A DNA stretch of 20,816 nt from a virus. Taxonomy: Duplodnaviria; Heunggongvirae; Uroviricota; Caudoviricetes. Below, piece by piece: positions 1,248-17,528 of the stretch. Location of the stretch: positions 1 to 20,816 of IMG/VR virus record IMGVR_UViG_2565956607_000008, one strand, 5' to 3'. The number at the start of each line of letters is the position of its first letter. The stretch's first letter is position 1. The translations under genes and the position numbers were made by a program. The notes below the pieces were generated by a model. The model had not been told where the DNA came from. It saw only the letters and a list, made by a program, of their open reading frames with translations, and did no database searches.

Positions 1248-2003
1248 TTATTTTGGACGCTTTTTGGTTGCTTTTTTCTTAAATTTGGGGGCGTACTTAT
1301 CCAAAGCGTTCGTTAGCAATCTCCGAAATGTATCTGGGTGGGTATCGCTGTCTTCATCGTTCCCGAATATTATGTTGTTTTCTATTACTTGGGCACTAAC
1401 CCTATTGATACTAAGGTTTCCTCCACTATGGAAATCTTTGCTTGATTCAAATAAGGCAATCGCCATTCCGGCGATCATCTTTAAAGCCGTATCTTTTCCT
1501 CTCCAGTTTTGTTCTCTTTCTACTTTTTTTGACAGTGCTCCAATTTCTGGTTCGTTATCTGGAACATTCATATCCAGTTCTGGGAAGAAGTTCACAACCT
1601 CGGAGCGCTTGAAATAAAACGAATCGTAAGACCCATACCAATCATCCTCATCATCGTGATATAAAAAGTCTTCCCCTTTCCTAACGTTGAAAGTCCCTTC
1701 TTCCCCCGGTATCGGGCTCTCCCTGTATTCATGCCCCATAGCCAGAAGACCTAAAAACTCCACACACTGCTTTTCAAAGTCGTCATTAGTTGTAAAACCT
1801 GATACCCAATCGAACTGATAAAAGCCCAGCCCCCCTAAAGTATCTGGTTTAGCTTTGCTCAATCTGTAGTTACTTAAGATAGCGGCAGCGATCATTCTTT
1901 CATTTTCATTGTTTAGTCTTGCCAGTTCGCTGATCAGATTACCAAACCAGATTTTATCTTCTGACTCGTTATAAAACGCATCTAGTCCTGTCATCTTAGT
2001 CAC
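1248..2003 (-). CDS. Hypothetical cargo protein of unknown function (251 aa), translationally coupled to the integrase
   Basis: Start overlaps the integrase stop by 8 nt (1996..2003); acidic central region; no motif recognised. The antisense ORF 1156..1617 is judged spurious. Confidence 0.55.
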   Translation of the reverse strand: MTKMTGLDAFYNESEDKIWFGNLISELARLNNENERMIAAAILSNYRLSKAKPDTLGGLGFYQFDWVSGFTTNDDFEKQCVEFLGLLAMGHEYRESPIPGEEGTFNVRKGEDFLYHDDEDDWYGSYDSFYFKRSEVVNFFPELDMNVPDNEPEIGALSKKVEREQNWRGKDTALKMIAGMAIALFESSKDFHSGGNLSINRVSAQVIENNIIFGNDEDSDTHPDTFRRLLTNALDKYAPKFKKKATKKRPK

Positions 2004-3282
2004 GGCGTGTTCTCCTTCCGAACTCGTAAGGGCTTATATGTATTTCTCGATTGGCGTCCAGATAATCTGCCCACCATTGAAGCATTAGTTTGCGCTCTTC
2101 TAAGTAATCAGCCTTGTGCTTGTAGGCTCTTTTAACGTCTTTATATTCTTTGTGGCTCATCTGGCGCTCTACTGCGTCCTCCTGCCACAAACCGGACTCC
2201 ATCAGGGAACTACAGGCTGTGGCACGGAATCCATGTCCAGTTACGTCCTCTTGCGTGTTATAGCCCATTAAGCGTAATGCCTTGTTTACCGTGTTTTCAC
2301 TCATCACGCCTTTGGTGTTTCTTTCATTCGGAAACACAACATCGTAGCTTCCGCTTAGTTCTCTCAACTGCTTTACAATAGAAACAGCCTGACGGCTAAG
2401 AAGCACGATATGTTCGTCTTTTCCCGTTTTTGTGCCACGGGTGGAAAACCTCACACCATCGATAGGCTCTCTTTTTTTAGGGATAATCCACTCAGCCCGA
2501 TCAAGGTCAAACTCTTTCCAACGGGCAAACCTTAACTCGCTTGAACGAACAAATGTCAACATGGTTAGCTCAATGGCAAGGCGGGTAAGAGGATTACCTT
2601 TAAAGCTGCCCAATCGAGTGAAAAAGTCTGGTAAATCTCTGGGATGTAGTGCGGCATGATGCTTAGTTTCATATTGCATTAACCGGACATCGAGATCATT
2701 CGTGATGATTTCTGTCTTAATGCCGCTCAGACGGGCGCTATGTATGATGTCCTTAACTCGTTGTTTAAGTCGGTTGGCTGTATCGTGTTTCCCGGCGTCA
2801 TCTACCTTCTTAAACAAAGGTAAAATTGTCATCGCCTCCAGTTTGCGAATATCCGAAGTGCCAATGTGAGGGAAAATATACATTTCAAGGCTTCTAAGTA
2901 CGCGTTTTCGTTGGTCTTCGTTCCACATCTGGTGGCTTTCAACCCATTGACGTCCTATTGTCTCAAAAGTGAATGCGCCTTTTTCTTCTGCTTTTGCTGC
3001 TCTTTGCTCTGCTTTGGGATCTATCCCCTTGACTAACAACTTTTTGGCGTTGTCTCGTTTTTCTCTGGCGTCTTGTAAGCTAATGGTTGGATATACACCA
3101 AAAGCAAGTCTGTCTTCTTTCTTATCTGATGGGCGGCGATACTTCATTCGCCAATACTTCGACCCGGTCTGGGATACTTCAAGATAAAGACCACCACCAT
3201 CAGACAATTTATAAGTTTTGTCTCGTGGCTTAGCTGCTTTGCACTGACGGTCTGTTAATTTGTTGAGGGTATTTCTGGACAT
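1996..3282 (-). CDS. int: Tyrosine site-specific integrase, P4/CP4-57 type (428 aa)
   Basis: N-terminal DUF4102-like arm-binding pattern (LTDRQCKAAKP...DGGGLYLEV...YWRMKYR), C-terminal catalytic region with HGFRAT and later Y; lies 165 bp from the 3' end of the tRNA on the same strand. Confidence 0.9.
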   Translation of the reverse strand: MSRNTLNKLTDRQCKAAKPRDKTYKLSDGGGLYLEVSQTGSKYWRMKYRRPSDKKEDRLAFGVYPTISLQDAREKRDNAKKLLVKGIDPKAEQRAAKAEEKGAFTFETIGRQWVESHQMWNEDQRKRVLRSLEMYIFPHIGTSDIRKLEAMTILPLFKKVDDAGKHDTANRLKQRVKDIIHSARLSGIKTEIITNDLDVRLMQYETKHHAALHPRDLPDFFTRLGSFKGNPLTRLAIELTMLTFVRSSELRFARWKEFDLDRAEWIIPKKREPIDGVRFSTRGTKTGKDEHIVLLSRQAVSIVKQLRELSGSYDVVFPNERNTKGVMSENTVNKALRLMGYNTQEDVTGHGFRATACSSLMESGLWQEDAVERQMSHKEYKDVKRAYKHKADYLEERKLMLQWWADYLDANREIHISPYEFGRRTRRD

Positions 3283-3446: not shown

Positions 3447-3521
3447 TGGTGTCCCCTGCAGGAATCGAACCTGCAATTAGCCCTTAGGAGGGGCTCGTTA
3501 TATCCATTTAACTAAGGGGAC
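3447..3521 (-). tRNA. argW: tRNA-Arg (anticodon CCU)
   Basis: Reverse complement folds by hand into a 75-nt cloverleaf: 7-bp acceptor stem GTCCCCT/AGGGGAC, D-arm GTTA/TAAC, anticodon stem AGCCC/GGGCT with loop CTCCTAA (anticodon CCT), T-arm GCAGG-TTCGATT-CCTGC, discriminator A, CCA end. Confidence 0.9.
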
Positions 3522-3716: not shown

Positions 3717-4892
3717 GTGGCCCTTAGTGATACCAAACTCCGTAGCATCAATGCTAAGCCATACAGCGGCGCAGCTGAGGTCACAGATGGTGACGGGCTA
3801 AGTGTACGCATAACTCCCACAGGCACGATCACATTCCAGTTTCGTTATCGCTGGAACGGTAAGCCCGTTCGTCTCTCCATTGGCCGCTATCCCGCTATGT
3901 CTCTCAAGGAGGCGCGCGTAGTCGTCGGTGAGATGCGCGAATTGTACCTCAAGGGACTAAACCCGAAAAATTATTTTGCCAAAGAAGATGGCGAGTTGAC
4001 TCTCAAAGAGTGCCTGGATCAGTGGTGGGGTAAGTATGTTGAAACGCTGAAGCCGAACACTCAGACGCTGTACAAGTCCGTTGTGTACAACACGATGTAC
4101 ACAGAATTCCCGGACGCTCCGGTAGTTAACATTCCTATTTCTGCATGGGTGCGTTTCTTTGATAAGCAGGAAAAGAAGAACAGCAAAAAGGCCAGAGTGC
4201 TTCTTCTACAGCTACGTTCTGTAATGAACTGGTGTATCAGCCGCCAGTTGATCCCATCGTGCGAGGTCCTGAAGCTTAGCGTTAAGAGCATTGGGAAAAA
4301 ACCTGATGTGGGTAGCCGAGTTCTCACATATACCGAGTTGGCAAAAATCTGGCTGGCGCTGGAGAATAACAAGATCGTGACTTCCAACAAGGTGCTTCAT
4401 CAGCTGCTTTTGCTTTGGGGAGCCAGGCTATCAGAGCTGCGTCTGGCTACCGCCAGTGAATTTAACATGGATGATCTTATCTGGACGACGCCAGGAGAGC
4501 ATTCCAAGATGGGTAACGTTATCCGTCGCCCGGTGTTTGGCCAGGTGAAACCTTTTGTTGAAAGGCTCCTCAATGCTGGAAATGATGTTCTGTTTCCCGG
4601 CCAGGAACTGGACAAGCCAATAGATCGCTCATCAGCTAATCTCTATATGAAAAAGTTAAGGAATAAAATTGATATCCCAGAATGGCGAACACATGACTTC
4701 AGGCGCTCGCTGGTGACAAATTTATCAGGTGAAGGGGTTATGCCCCACGTCACCGAAAAGATGTTGGGGCATGAGTTGGGAGGAGTGATGGCGGTGTATA
4801 ACAAGCACGATTGGCTGGTAGAACAGAAAGAAGCATATGAGCTATATGCAGATAAAATTTTTTGGCATGTCAAGAAAATAAATGACCAATAA
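3717..4892 (+). CDS. int: Tyrosine integrase of the lambdoid prophage (about 391 aa; GTG start proposed)
   Basis: The ORF track gives 3552..4892, but the conserved integrase N-terminus (ALSDTKLRSINAKP...DGDGLSVRI...FQFRYRWNGK) begins at an in-frame GTG at 3717 preceded by AGGA; C-terminal catalytic region has HDFRRS. Start choice is uncertain. Confidence 0.8.
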   Translation: MALSDTKLRSINAKPYSGAAEVTDGDGLSVRITPTGTITFQFRYRWNGKPVRLSIGRYPAMSLKEARVVVGEMRELYLKGLNPKNYFAKEDGELTLKECLDQWWGKYVETLKPNTQTLYKSVVYNTMYTEFPDAPVVNIPISAWVRFFDKQEKKNSKKARVLLLQLRSVMNWCISRQLIPSCEVLKLSVKSIGKKPDVGSRVLTYTELAKIWLALENNKIVTSNKVLHQLLLLWGARLSELRLATASEFNMDDLIWTTPGEHSKMGNVIRRPVFGQVKPFVERLLNAGNDVLFPGQELDKPIDRSSANLYMKKLRNKIDIPEWRTHDFRRSLVTNLSGEGVMPHVTEKMLGHELGGVMAVYNKHDWLVEQKEAYELYADKIFWHVKKINDQ

Positions 4893-14225: not shown

Positions 14226-14570
14226 ATGCGTGATATGTATGAAATTTTAGACCGCTGGGGAGCATGGGCTGCAGCTGATAGTAGTGGTGTTGATTGGAAA
14301 CCCATTGCCGCAGGTTTTAAAGGTTTGTTACCTCATGGAAAGAAAACACGTCATCAATGCGATGATGATGAAGGAATCATGATTGACGGCTGTGTAGCGC
14401 GATTGCGGAAGTATAAGCCAGAAGAGTATGAGTTAATAATTGCTCATTTTGTTATTGGTTTCTCATTAAGAAGCATCGCGAAGAAACGGAAGTGTTCTGA
14501 TGGGACCATCAGGAAGGAATTGCAGACTGCAATGGGGTTTGTAGATGGTTGTTTAGAAATGGTTAACTGA
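14226..14570 (+). CDS. Late-gene antitermination protein Q (QuuD-like family; 114 aa)
   Basis: MRD...LDRWGAWAA...DWKPIAAGFKGL...RHQCDDDEG...DGCVARL...CSDGTIRKELQTAMGFVDGCL closely follows the pattern I recall for DLP12-type Q antiterminators. Confidence 0.8.
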   Translation: MRDMYEILDRWGAWAAADSSGVDWKPIAAGFKGLLPHGKKTRHQCDDDEGIMIDGCVARLRKYKPEEYELIIAHFVIGFSLRSIAKKRKCSDGTIRKELQTAMGFVDGCLEMVN

Positions 14571-14606: not shown

Positions 14607-15068
14607 TTAAAAGCTTTTAAGATATTTGCTTTTGATTTTTTCACTAACACTTTGTAATTCATGCAGTGTTGTGCCAACTTTATCAGCTTCATATTTTGTG
14701 TCATTGGTACATGCTTGGCGCAACTCTGCTATGAAACCTGTATCTTTTGTGCGGCTTGCATCAAGGAGTTGAATGCGTTCACATATAAACTCAACATGCC
14801 GTACGGACGATGTAAATATGAAATAAGATACTCTTTTGTCTTTTTCTTTATTCTCAAGTAGTTCCAGCATTTCACTATAAATGAAATCTAACTTGTAAAA
14901 CAACTCGTCTATCAATCTGTTTATTTCAAGTTTTTTGAGATTGTTTGCATTATTTTTCCGCGCCAAGTAGGCAGTAACTATCCATCCAATGATAGTTAAA
15001 CATATGCCCACAATAGCAATTATGGTAGCTGGTAGTGCCCATAAATTTGGAGTAACGGCTTGTTCCAT
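14607..15068 (-). CDS. Cassette gene C: single-pass membrane protein with helical cytoplasmic domain (153 aa)
   Basis: N-terminal hydrophobic helix (LWALPATIIAIVGICLTIIGWIVTAYLA) then charged helical region; 1-nt TAATG overlap with gene B; GAGGGATG ribosome-binding site; AT-rich. Confidence 0.7.
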   Translation of the reverse strand: MEQAVTPNLWALPATIIAIVGICLTIIGWIVTAYLARKNNANNLKKLEINRLIDELFYKLDFIYSEMLELLENKEKDKRVSYFIFTSSVRHVEFICERIQLLDASRTKDTGFIAELRQACTNDTKYEADKVGTTLHELQSVSEKIKSKYLKSF

Positions 15069-15385
15069 TATTTGGCATCCCTCAGAGCATCATTGATATA
15101 AGTAACAACCTCGGCAACTAATGCCGGATCCTTACTTTTAAGATTTTTCTTTAGGTTGTTAATCTTATCTTTGCTGATTCCCTTTCGCACCAGTCCACCA
15201 AAGGCCTCCTCCAAAAATGAGGATCCATACCCGAAAACCCCGTCAAAGTCAACGCAAATTTCATCATTTTCCAGTATTGCAGGAACTAAATAAAATTCGC
15301 GGAATTTTTCGCCACTATTCTCTCCAAGCGACTCGTAGCGAGGGCCAGGATATCTGGAGAATTCCTTGATATATAAAGTTTTCAT
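15068..15385 (-). CDS. Cassette gene B: STAS-like (DUF4325-like) small protein (105 aa)
   Basis: VDFDGVFGYGSSFLEEAFGGL parallels the anti-sigma-factor-antagonist motif around the phosphorylatable serine; strong AAGGAGAAG ribosome-binding site; ATGA overlap with gene A. Confidence 0.7.
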   Translation of the reverse strand: MKTLYIKEFSRYPGPRYESLGENSGEKFREFYLVPAILENDEICVDFDGVFGYGSSFLEEAFGGLVRKGISKDKINNLKKNLKSKDPALVAEVVTYINDALRDAK

Positions 15386-16482
15386 GCCGCTTCTCCTTCA
15401 GTTGGTAGTGGCACACTCCACTCAACAATTGTACCATTGATGGATTTATGAGCATCCCACATCAATTCGGGCCTTGCTTTCTTCCTTTTAGTATATCTGT
15501 AGTTCCCCTTGTTTGATATGATTCTGAGTTGGGCATGTGTAAAATTATCTATAATTGATTGTAAATCCGTGCCGCCTTTCCCTCTGTAACCAAGTTTTGT
15601 TCTTGTGCGTTTAACCTGTAATGATGCTTTTATATGCTCTGAATCTAATTCAATAGGCTTGCCTATAATTTCAATAAGTTTTGATAAAACTCTTTCTCCT
15701 TGAGTTAATTTCAAAGTTTTGGGAATTCCAACTCCTAAATCGCATATGGATAAAATCAATTTATTATTCATTATTGCTGCAAAACACCACCATTTATTTT
15801 TAATGTTGTTCTTTTGCTTGTCGTATAGATCATCTCTATATGCGTGCTCTACCGAGTTGGACATCGCCTCAATTAGAGGTCTGTATAAATTAGTGTAATC
15901 CGTTCCCATTTTCTCAGTTACTGCTTCTAATAGTTTCCCAGCAATTGTAGAATCAACCAGTTCACCTCTAATAACCTCCCAGCACTTAACAGATGGGTTC
16001 TCTTTCATCTCTCGACCTTTTACCCCAAATGCAGAATATATACCAATACGGTTAAGTACGCTATCAACTACATGATGTTCGCCTTTCTGTGTAGTTTTGA
16101 ATGGAGGGCGAGTTACAGTGTATCTTATATCTGGATAGTTACTTTTTAAACTCTCCAGTTTTGCTAGTAAATATAATCCTGCAGCGGCCGATATGTAAAT
16201 CGTATTTCTGAAGCAAACATATATTTTTTGAGTTTTAAACTGCTCTTGCTTGGCTTTTTTTTCAATATTTTCAATAAAACTTATTACGTTGTCATGGTAA
16301 TTAGAGTTATAGATATCAAGAATAGTAGGTGCAACTATTTTTTCAGAATTTGATTTTCGTATGTTACCATTACGTTTGTATCTTTTGTGTTCGGTTGACT
16401 TTTTGCTTGCGTTTGCACGGAGAAACCTTTTTCTCCTTATTCTTTTTAACACTGAAGTATAGAGCTGTTCTATTTTTTTCAT
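15382..16482 (-). CDS. Cassette gene A: protein with basic N-terminal region and C-terminal GHKL/HATPase-like ATP-binding domain (366 aa)
   Basis: AAGGAG ribosome-binding site 8 nt upstream; N-box-like EAMSNSVEHAY (E205..N209..H213), G1-like CDLGVGI (D248xGxG), G2-like GYRGKGGTDL (about 299..308); AT-rich. Confidence 0.7.
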   Translation of the reverse strand: MKKIEQLYTSVLKRIRRKRFLRANASKKSTEHKRYKRNGNIRKSNSEKIVAPTILDIYNSNYHDNVISFIENIEKKAKQEQFKTQKIYVCFRNTIYISAAAGLYLLAKLESLKSNYPDIRYTVTRPPFKTTQKGEHHVVDSVLNRIGIYSAFGVKGREMKENPSVKCWEVIRGELVDSTIAGKLLEAVTEKMGTDYTNLYRPLIEAMSNSVEHAYRDDLYDKQKNNIKNKWWCFAAIMNNKLILSICDLGVGIPKTLKLTQGERVLSKLIEIIGKPIELDSEHIKASLQVKRTRTKLGYRGKGGTDLQSIIDNFTHAQLRIISNKGNYRYTKRKKARPELMWDAHKSINGTIVEWSVPLPTEGEAA

Positions 16483-16707
16483 TTTACTCGACTCCTTGAT
16501 GTAATAATCAGCTCAGTTTACAAAAACACTAACGCGTACGCAAAAACTATCGTAATCTGTTAAGAGTGGTCACTTCGACACGAACTTAAAACATATTGAA
16601 GCCTCGCTTTTGCGGGTTTTGTTCCGTTCAGGGCTCTTGGGTTGAGATGTTCTGCATGACACATCGCAAGTAAGCATCTTCTGGCGCCTTTGACAGAGTG
16701 TTACATA

Positions 16708-16737
16708 TTGACTAACACAAAGTTTACAAATTAGATT
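16708..16737 (+). promoter_or_regulatory. Putative late promoter (pR'-like)
   Basis: TTGACT (16708..16713), 17-18 bp spacer, TTAGAT/TAGATT (16731..16737); upstream of a non-coding leader ending in terminators before the lysis genes. Sequence-only prediction. Confidence 0.3.
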
Positions 16738-17010
16738 ATCGACATGGTGAATCCCCCTATGCGGTGGGGCGACCAGTCACTTACAGTGATCTGTAAATGC
16801 AGCGCGGGCCATGTCGACTGGGACATGCTCACCGGGAGGCACCCGGCACCATACAATGCTACTAAGCTATTTGGTAGTGGGGTTGCCGTTTCGGCTTCTC
16901 CAGCTATGTTTAAAAGGTAGTAACGGAAAACGAGCGCTCTCCTGGTAAATCGGTAGCTCGGACTATTAGGTGCGCCTCGTTCCGTTGCAGAATCAGTATT
17001 GCCTACCTTC

Positions 17011-17037
17011 TGCCCGCCCCTCTGAGCGGGCTTTTTT
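17011..17037 (+). terminator. Intrinsic terminator (tR'-like) in the late leader
   Basis: GCCCGC-CCCTCTGA-GCGGGC followed by TTTTTTT. Confidence 0.6.
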
Positions 17038-17083
17038 TCGCCATGAATAAGTCTCCCCGGCAAGATGAGGAACAAATCATTTG

Positions 17084-17113
17084 AGGCTGCGCTTATGCGC
17101 GGCCTTTTTCATT
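17084..17113 (+). terminator. Second intrinsic terminator upstream of the holin
   Basis: GGCTGCGC-TTAT-GCGCGGCC (8-bp stem with one G-U pair) followed by TTTTTCATTT. Confidence 0.5.
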
Positions 17114-17216
17114 TCAGGCTCACGGGAATCATCATCGATAAAGCTCGTTGTTAAATCAGCCCGATGGGCCTGACCCTTTCAAACACACAGCACCCCGTTA
17201 ACCCGGAGGTGAACCT

Positions 17217-17528
17217 ATGGCAAAGCATATGCAAGACAAAGAAAGCATGGCCGGAATCACCTGGCTGGCTCTGCTGATCATTGCTGGCTGGGGCGGCCTT
17301 GTCCGATTCCTGATGGATGTGAAGCAGGGCAAAGCGAAATGGAGTTGGATAAATGCTTTTGCGCAGATTGTGGTTTCGGCGTTTACCGGGGTCATTGGTG
17401 GGCTCATCAGCATTGAAGGTGGCCTGAGTATTTACATGATACTGGCCACGGCCGGTATCAGTGGCGCTATGGGTTCCGTAGCGCTCACGTATTTCTGGGA
17501 ACGAATTACCGGAGTGAAAGCACAATGA
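17217..17528 (+). CDS. Holin (103 aa, multi-TM)
   Basis: GGAGGTG ribosome-binding site; hydrophobic helices with charged C-terminus; immediately upstream of and overlapping (ATGA) the endolysin gene. Confidence 0.75.
   Translation: MAKHMQDKESMAGITWLALLIIAGWGGLVRFLMDVKQGKAKWSWINAFAQIVVSAFTGVIGGLISIEGGLSIYMILATAGISGAMGSVALTYFWERITGVKAQ

Follow-up and report, generated by a model that had tools for sequence, protein, structure and literature searches.

The locus considered here raises the question of what lies between the Q antiterminator gene and the lysis genes of a Klebsiella prophage (IMG/VR record IMGVR_UViG_2565956607_000008, positions 1 to 20,816, the entire stretch being referred to as the window). 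In lambdoid phages, Q-modified polymerase must read through the terminators that precede the lysis genes, and a sequence-only reading of the window had interpreted a TTGACT/TAGATT promoter-like pair, a long leader and two tandem terminators as a pR'/qut/tR' system of this kind. The individual features were confirmed. A promoter scan located TTGACT-18-TAGATT at 16708-16737, and a terminator scan combined with folding identified two intrinsic terminators, T1 (17012-17038) and T2 (17083-17111), followed by the holin ribosome-binding site, GGAGG, at 17206-17210. The approximately 300 nt between the promoter and the terminators had no credible open reading frame (ORF), since the plus-strand candidate, a 58-residue frame, was not conserved in the homologous elements described below. 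No tRNA gene was found in 16450-17250, either by ARAGORN or with the Rfam tRNA/tmRNA models at E values up to 10, so a tRNA or degenerate tRNA at 16950-17010 was rejected; the sole tRNA reported by ARAGORN in the window was tRNA-Arg at 3447-3521. As flagged, the arrangement is ordinary. The analysis indicated, however, that the Klebsiella-prophage element at 16708-17038 is probably a small RNA (sRNA) gene of the STnc100/EcOnc27/PasD family. Both this family and the genomic niche it occupies are already known, the element being a member with a 3' domain specific to its sub-family.

The region 16715-16907 matched the Rfam STnc100 family (RF02076) over the full length of the model, with a score of 76.2 bits compared to a gathering score of 47 (E 5.8e-15), and a covariance model constructed in this study, R1, gave the window core 97.5 bits. 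BLAST against phage records revealed two short, near-invariant blocks, CATGGTGAATCCCCC..GGGGCGAC and CTCACCGGGAGGCACCCGGCACCA, around a variable centre, a signature present in Klebsiella, Shiga toxin (Stx)-converting, Shigella and other phages. Members were gathered from three sources, 1) the exact two-block pattern in viral contigs, 2) the same pattern in one genome per species and 3) R1, which alone recovered divergent members such as PasD. The structured core comprises 109 nt on the plus strand (16744-16852) and has five helices, P1 (16744-49/16847-52), P2 (16753-56/16766-69), P3 (16781-86/16791-96), P4 (16806-15/16822-30) and P5 (16832-36/16842-46), all of which were recovered in the minimum-energy fold of the 109 nt. 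The helices that characterize the STnc100 core, the closing helix, the CCCC/GGGG hairpin, the variable hairpin and the CCGGG-AGGCA-CCCGG hairpin, were all found in the window. Moreover, CCAGTC (16773-78), in the strand after P2, is complementary to the P4 loop, GACTGG (16816-21), forming a pseudoknot that is absent from the Rfam model.

Covariation was evaluated in a model-guided alignment of 119 distinct sequences. The helix cells were paired in 87.1% of cases, compared to 52% or less when the 3' partners were slid by 1-3 columns. Changes on both sides were seen at 19 of the 26 pairs and none of 500 shuffles reached the observed values. Covariation was strong in P1 and P4, while P2 and P5 were nearly invariant; the invariance of core columns is partly a matter of ascertainment because the two blocks served as the search pattern. 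G-U pairs were common and A-C pairs rare (44 and 3 in P1, 131 and 27 in P4), indicating that the constraint acts on the plus-strand RNA. A column-based count for the pseudoknot (70.6% paired) was too low, as the loop register shifts by one base between sub-families, and was replaced by a helix search carried out on each sequence. By this measure, a helix of at least 6 bp was formed by 77% of the cognate but only 22% of the non-cognate combinations, with 85 distinct complementary sequence pairs across the family.

The sigma-70 promoter assigned to the sRNA gene (16708-16737, plus strand) consists of a -35 element, TTGACT (16708-16713), and a -10 element, TAGATT (16732-16737), from which the RNA would be expected to start at approximately 16742-16744. 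The promoter is convincing because the position of the -10 element is retained across related elements, not because of the scan of the window. Among 55 distinct upstream contexts, TAnnnT began 14 to 11 bases before the first helix base in 36, and exactly 12 bases before it in 24, while other positions had 0-9 occurrences, mostly 1-3. A TTGnnn hexamer was commonest where a 16-18 bp spacer predicts it, although the upstream sequences were otherwise very diverse. Covariation with the pairing partners extends to the first two bases of P1 (ATGGTG/CACCAT, GTGGTG/CACCAC and CAGGTG/CACCTG), so that transcription must begin at P1 or immediately upstream of it. For PasD1 of enteropathogenic E. coli (EPEC), RNA sequencing coverage puts the 5' end at position 1060260 of NC_011601 (PMC8550237, Table S6), which was located 2 nt before the homologous ATGGTG.

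The core is followed by a conserved 3' domain of a Klebsiella-type variant (16853-17011, plus strand; -50.9 kcal/mol, z -2.95), for which no Rfam match was found. Alignment of 30 sequence variants showed that it contains an invariant 30-mer, CCTGGTAAATCGGTAGCTCGGACTATTAGG, at 16941-16970. Searched for exactly in viral contigs, part of the 30-mer had more than 110 distinct occurrences. A core was located 100-119 nt upstream of the motif in 107 of 110, and the other three followed point-variant or partly unread cores. The domain, or the 30-mer within it, could be a seed or a protein-binding site.

Terminator T1 (stem 17012-17031, then U7; plus strand) had a folding energy of -12.5 kcal/mol (z -3.35 relative to shuffles) and was retained by each of the 30 variants of the 3' domain, where sequence changes left the stem intact, regardless of the sequence downstream. 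The predicted sRNA, ending at T1, would be about 295 nt long. T2 (stem 17083-17106, then U5; plus strand) was stronger (-19.3 kcal/mol, z -5.95), but was absent after T1 in several relatives. Moreover, E. coli phages without the Klebsiella-type unit matched the window just from 17084 onward, through to the holin, and the T2 stem, GGCTGCGC/GCGCGGCC, also terminates PasD1 and is found ahead of the esterase gene in a Stx1 phage. These observations indicate that T1 is the terminator of the sRNA and that T2 belongs to the next module, the one upstream of the lysis genes, in which it would act as a back-up terminator. Thus, both members of what had been described as an unusual double terminator exist, but their origins differ. 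T2 was also considered as a PasA/PasC-type sRNA terminator and rejected, as PasA and PasC are on the opposite strand and differ in sequence. More generally, an intrinsic terminator was found within 300 nt in 266 of 314 distinct core contexts (85%), at a distance of 60 nt or less in 130 of the 266 and at 120-199 nt, the Klebsiella type, in 107.

The window element shares with the STnc100 RNAs of enterohemorrhagic E. coli (EHEC) Stx phages, EcOnc27/sRNA103 and EcOnc42, the core helices, a promoter of its own, the orientation and the position between the late promoter and the lysis genes. It differs in its host, which is Klebsiella, and in the 3' part. The terminator of the STnc100 model directly after the core (positions ~166-206) aligned poorly in the window, where its counterpart was a weak hairpin with no U-tract. 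E. coli and Salmonella members have a terminator within about 60 nt of the core, whereas in the window a 3' domain of about 160 nt precedes T1, so that the predicted length of ~295 nt compares with ~170-210 nt for STnc100 members. The window element is thus a sub-family variant lacking the immediate post-core terminator, and its spacing was shared by 107 of the 314 contexts. PasD1 and PasD2 of EPEC occupy the same genomic niche and have the same P1-closed start of the core, but are without the P5 hairpin, have a CCUCC/GGAGG P2 and pass by a short tail straight to a T2-type terminator. The PasD terminator stem is that of T2; in the window, the 3' domain and T1 lie between T2 and the core. PasD1 scored 25 bits with R1 (E 0.005-0.007).

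Expression in lysogens and Hfq binding have been demonstrated for the E. coli and Salmonella relatives (PMC4104026, PMC5331693, PMC8550237). Eight Sakai prophages carry convergent Hfq-binding sRNA genes at an insertion site downstream of pR', with EcOnc27 located 3' of stx2B (PMC4104026), an arrangement whose reason was termed unclear in a later review (PMC7873438). Of the 11 STnc100 copies in strain EDL933, most are expressed and one was verified by Northern blotting (PMC5331693), and ChIP-exo in S. Typhimurium LT2 showed RpoD and RpoN binding patterns at the promoters of multiple copies (PMC10794520). PasD1 and PasD2 are abundant RNAs of 172-173 nt in EPEC Hfq RIL-seq, with chimeras at their 3' ends (PMC8550237). 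PasD and STnc100 have been linked by structure, and a shared ancestor proposed for them, in a 2026 preprint that gives their function as not known (bioRxiv 10.64898/2026.05.13.724894). An antisense partner of the AsxR/AgvB type, as in EHEC, was sought in the window; there was no Rfam match, just a weak minus-strand hairpin at 17072-17053, and the candidate was rejected.

The distribution of the core extends well beyond these organisms. The exact two-block signature was present in 84 stretches from about 30 named genera (one genome per species), including Pantoea, Erwinia, Rosenbergiella and Rahnella. Cores of the STnc100 type arranged in tandem, three to six per array, were found in L222 (950-1986, minus strand) and L218 (3116-4483, minus strand), and also in L220, L237, L277, L278, L268 and L053. 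On a Pantoea megaplasmid (L222), six cores lie within about 1 kb, downstream of a DUF1133 Q-like gene, as two promoter-core-core-core-terminator units with spacers as short as ~15-27 nt. Since these spacers are too short to accommodate a promoter and a terminator for each core, the cores must be co-transcribed. A second locus on the same plasmid (L218) has five cores, one of them directly before a 41-codon ORF. Just upstream of that array is a tRNA-like sequence, read by eye from acceptor and T-arm-like segments, and in the Klebsiella phage L002 a tRNA-Asn gene (4360-4431) and a further terminator are inserted between T2 and the holin, so that tRNA genes and the sRNA share an insertion zone.

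The arrays, the exact recurrence of the signature and the pseudoknot suggest an independent function for the core. It is possible, although rather unlikely, that the core is itself the functional structured RNA, aptamer-like or binding a protein or polymerase, and acts in cis on the late transcript or the downstream terminators, or as a decoy for some conserved factor of host or phage, rather than being just the body of a base-pairing sRNA. Such a role is compatible with an sRNA gene and would be in keeping with the five helices, the covarying pseudoknot, the near-invariant loops and junctions, the signature blocks found in so many genera, the burial of the 5' end in P1, the close spacing of the cores in arrays of up to six and the core that directly precedes the 41-codon ORF. 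However, the invariance is partly ascertainment and PasD lacks P5; inspection of the window and its relatives revealed no conserved alternative pairing between the core and T1 or T2; the genes downstream of the core vary (holin, esterase, tRNA); a terminator follows within 300 nt in 85% of contexts; and the Rfam riboswitch, ribozyme and tRNA models gave no match to the region even at E values up to 10. A riboswitch-like exchange between core and terminators was also considered, as the 3' strand of P1 has an 8 nt complementarity to the terminator in PasD1 of EPEC; it was absent from the window, L126 and L127 and was treated as chance.

A related idea, which we regard as equally tentative, is that the 109-nt core is a self-contained functional module whose binding partner is some conserved macromolecule of the host or the phage, for which it would serve as decoy, sponge or enzyme substrate, the variable 3' tails contributing no more than Hfq and seed functions. 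The core is a four-way junction in which the closing helix continues into a 5 bp hairpin, accompanied by a 4 bp stem with a 9 nt loop and the pseudoknotted central arm. This topology loosely recalls a cloverleaf, a reading that is our own and has no support from any tRNA model; the tRNA genes at the same phage position were noted beside it as fitting a macromolecule-binding core. If true, such a module would explain both the recurrence of the blocks across the Enterobacterales and the arrays of up to six cores.

The interpretation from which the question arose, that TTGACT/TAGATT is pR', that the leader holds a qut site for Q and that T1 and T2 together are a double tR', is improbable. Its description of a non-coding late leader with a real promoter and real terminators before the lysis cassette was correct, and the unit is downstream of a Q gene in every annotated relative; in the window, L001, L002, L003, L004, L126, L127 and L208 it lies between Q and the lysis genes on the late strand. 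However, near-identical units were found behind Q proteins of three unrelated families. The Q gene of the window (14226-14570, plus strand) belongs to PF06530 (E 1.5e-46), the Q21/Q933W family, a name taken from bioRxiv 10.1101/651190, while the unit follows a Q-lambda-type Q (PF03589) in Klebsiella phage L001 and a Q82-type Q (PF06323) in L002. Both of these phages have a separate promoter-like region and a terminator directly after Q, before the sRNA promoter, and L001 carries the lambda-like pause motif AACGATGGG. Conversely, two phages with the same Q allele (88% identical) had differing sequences from -35 to +1 before the unit. In Stx phages, the unit follows stxB, far from the mapped pR' (PMC12370729), and in EPEC it is 1.2 kb after a lambda-like pR'. 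No TAnnnT pause element was found in the first ~30 transcribed bases (16744-16775) of the window. A unit that follows three Q families, and stxB in Stx phages, is not a Q-specific qut site.

Linkage to the cognate Q was found instead for a block at 16532-16575, ACGCGTACGCAAAAACTATCGTAATCTGTTAAGAGTGGTCACTT, and not for the promoter at 16708. We fetched 80 viral loci encoding a Q at least 86% identical to that of the window which, together with the window, L126 and L127, gave 83 loci. The block was present in 75 of the 83, and 7 of the 8 loci without it were contigs ending less than 1.4 kb after Q. By comparison, just 30 of the 80 contained the STnc100 core, which was separated from the block by 190 to ~2000 nt. 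The flanks of the block, ACGCGTACGCAAAAA and TGTTAAGAGTGGT, were almost invariant, and two overlapping hexamers within it kept TAnnnT while the other bases changed. The 3' part, TAAGAGTGGTYAC, and the T-run hairpin that follows have their homologue in a Stx1 phage (L004), immediately downstream of its Q933-type Q. In Stx phages, differential RNA sequencing and Term-seq placed the pR' start 258 nt before the 3' end of tR' (PMC7547250). Counting back 258 nt from the L004 terminator led to a start in TAAGAGTGG, which corresponds to ~16565 in the window. We infer that pR' starts near 16565, give or take a few bases.

The Q-linked late promoter is thus most probably the block at 16532-16575, approximately 180 bases upstream of the flagged promoter. 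The probable pR' with its Q-loading region (16529-16575, plus strand) would have a weak -35-like element, CTAACG (16529-16534), and TAATCT (16553-16558) as the -10 element. The candidate Q-binding element, in which ACGC occurs twice, 6 bases apart, lies in the spacer, within ACGCGTACGC (16532-16541). The candidate pause position, a few bases past the putative start, reads TACTTT or TACATT in relatives and TCACTT in the window.

A third terminator-like hairpin, missing from the sequence-only reading, was found at 16598-16625 (plus strand). With its U-tract it is a candidate early terminator, ~35-60 nt into the presumed pR' transcript (-10.7 kcal/mol, z -2.3), and an equivalent T-run hairpin occurs at the same position in L126, L127 and L004. 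Intrinsic terminators between promoter and late genes are therefore present for both promoters, T1 and T2 in each case and the early hairpin in addition for the upstream one. If the early hairpin is leaky, T1 and T2 may also be the effective tR', forming a barrier to pR' transcripts. The corresponding GC hairpin with T7 in Stx1 phages (L004 3205-3232; L127 7108-7135) is ~25-52 nt into the pR' transcript, and, given the published Term-seq 3' end at +258, either terminates poorly or produces very short RNAs that escaped detection. The early hairpin is followed by a conserved segment, GTTCAGGGCTCTTGGGTTGAGATG (window 16626-16670; L001 3999-4070). In L001 this segment forms the 5' arm of a long inverted repeat (TCAGGGCTCT...AGAGCCCTGA); the window lacks the 3' arm, an absence suggestive of a scar left by recombination. 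Homology of the upstream leader to IsrK was considered and rejected (11.9 bits, E 8.5, not significant).

Two kinds of phage RNA offer a comparison with this arrangement. Lambda 6S RNA and StxS are constitutive, short pR'-tR' RNAs made before terminators that Q-modified polymerase reads through, and StxS binds Hfq (PMC7547250). Their true counterpart in the window is 16529-16625, which shares the TAAGAGTGGTYAC start region with Stx phages, whereas the flagged unit has neither sequence similarity to StxS nor linkage to a Q allele, and lambda was not among its phage matches by BLAST. The put RNA of HK022 (PMC9378689) resembles the core in being structured and in beginning only a few bases from the 5' end of the transcript of a lambdoid phage operon. 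However, put is ~70 nt long with two stems and no pseudoknot, functions in early operons and makes polymerase resistant to terminators, while the core has five helices and a pseudoknot and its relatives accumulate as terminated species. The phage matches to the core and its flanks did not include HK022, and no sequence similarity was detected. The differing architecture and the terminated RNAs of the relatives argue against a put-type antiterminator.

It is very improbable that the region encodes a small protein in the 58-residue plus-strand ORF (16744-16920) or in a 114-residue minus-strand ORF because, although ORFs exist on both strands, minus-strand hypothetical proteins are annotated over homologous regions in several phage records and the 114-residue product weakly matches a PHROG of unknown function (E 0.0013), the plus-strand frame was open with a start codon in just 34 of the 119 distinct cores, core lengths were evenly distributed modulo 3 (37, 39 and 43), substitutions compensated in the helices with tolerance of plus-strand G-U and no ribosome-binding site was present.

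Several observations weigh against the assignment of the element as an sRNA gene behind a separate, Q-linked late promoter, 1) the number of promoter-like sites in the window (3 found, 4.3 expected) and of terminator-like sites (5 found, 3.1 expected) is no higher than in shuffled sequence, so that significance must rest on the comparison with relatives, 2) the expression, 3' ends and Hfq binding of the Klebsiella element are extrapolated from E. coli and Salmonella, 3) PasD levels are Hfq-independent (PMC8550237, Table S2), 4) the exact recurrence of 12- and 15-nt blocks across genera, the pseudoknot and the short-spacer arrays would seem to exceed the needs of a scaffold for a base-pairing sRNA, 5) the exact start, Q-binding site and pause element of the upstream pR' are inferred only and 6) the early hairpin at 16598-16625 may terminate poorly, as the 3' end in Stx phages is at +258 despite a similar hairpin.

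With these reservations, the following sequence of events can be proposed for the STnc100-family gene. The sigma-70 promoter at 16708-16737 would start the RNA at ~16742-16744, which would fold at once into the five-helix, pseudoknotted core of 109 nt with its first bases locked in P1. Transcription would run on through the ~160-nt 3' domain and end at T1, giving the ~295-nt product. By analogy with the E. coli and Salmonella relatives, which bind Hfq near their 3' ends, the RNA would probably be transcribed constitutively in the Klebsiella lysogen, accumulate and act in trans, and may bind Hfq. Two constitutive promoters would then face the lysis genes in the lysogen, with T1 and T2 in series blocking both. 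Transcripts from pR' would meet the hairpin at 16598-16625, then T1 and T2, while those from the sRNA promoter would end at T1, with T2 as a back-up. After induction, Q would load at the upstream promoter and carry the polymerase through the three terminators into the holin gene.

The holin gene (17217-17528, plus strand; PF16083, E 2.7e-21) is the first gene shielded by the terminators and is followed by a GH108 endolysin (PF05838, PF09374). Downstream of T2, in the 5' region of the holin (17112-17200), there is a conserved long-range inverted repeat, CAGGCTCACGGG ... CCCGATGGGCCTG, common to E. coli and Klebsiella phages, that may be a structured 5' untranslated region of the lysis operon. 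Between Q and the late promoter, outside of the RNA unit, is a three-gene cassette on the minus strand (14607-16482) encoding a DUF4325 STAS-like protein, a 366-residue protein and a 153-residue protein. All three match PHROGs of unknown function, and none had a match in PADLOC, so that an identity as anti-phage defense genes was rejected. Different cassettes of 1.4-3.0 kb occupy the same site in related phages (window, L126-L207). Every locus with the Q allele of the window has 1.4-3.0 kb of variable genes between Q and the cognate late-promoter block, on the opposite strand where the annotation was inspected (window, L126 and L127), and the discrete classes of Q-to-block distance suggest a hotspot for exchangeable cassettes. 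At the other end of the window, the tRNA-Arg gene (CCT; 3447-3521, minus strand) adjoins a 428-residue ORF (1996-3282, minus strand), and the prophage may have its integration end here.

In annotation, the region is best labeled an STnc100-family sRNA gene that has a promoter and a terminator of its own, with the late promoter assigned ~180 bases upstream, and the minus-strand "hypothetical proteins" recorded over the element in phage genomes are probably spurious. The arrangement would amount to a layered safety design, with three terminators ahead of the holin to guard the lysis genes against two constitutive promoters pointing at them. STnc100-family sRNAs rank with the most abundant RNAs of prophage origin in pathogenic E. 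coli, and the covarying pseudoknot, the recurrence of the two blocks from Escherichia to Pantoea and Rahnella and the tandem arrays provide handles on the function of their core.

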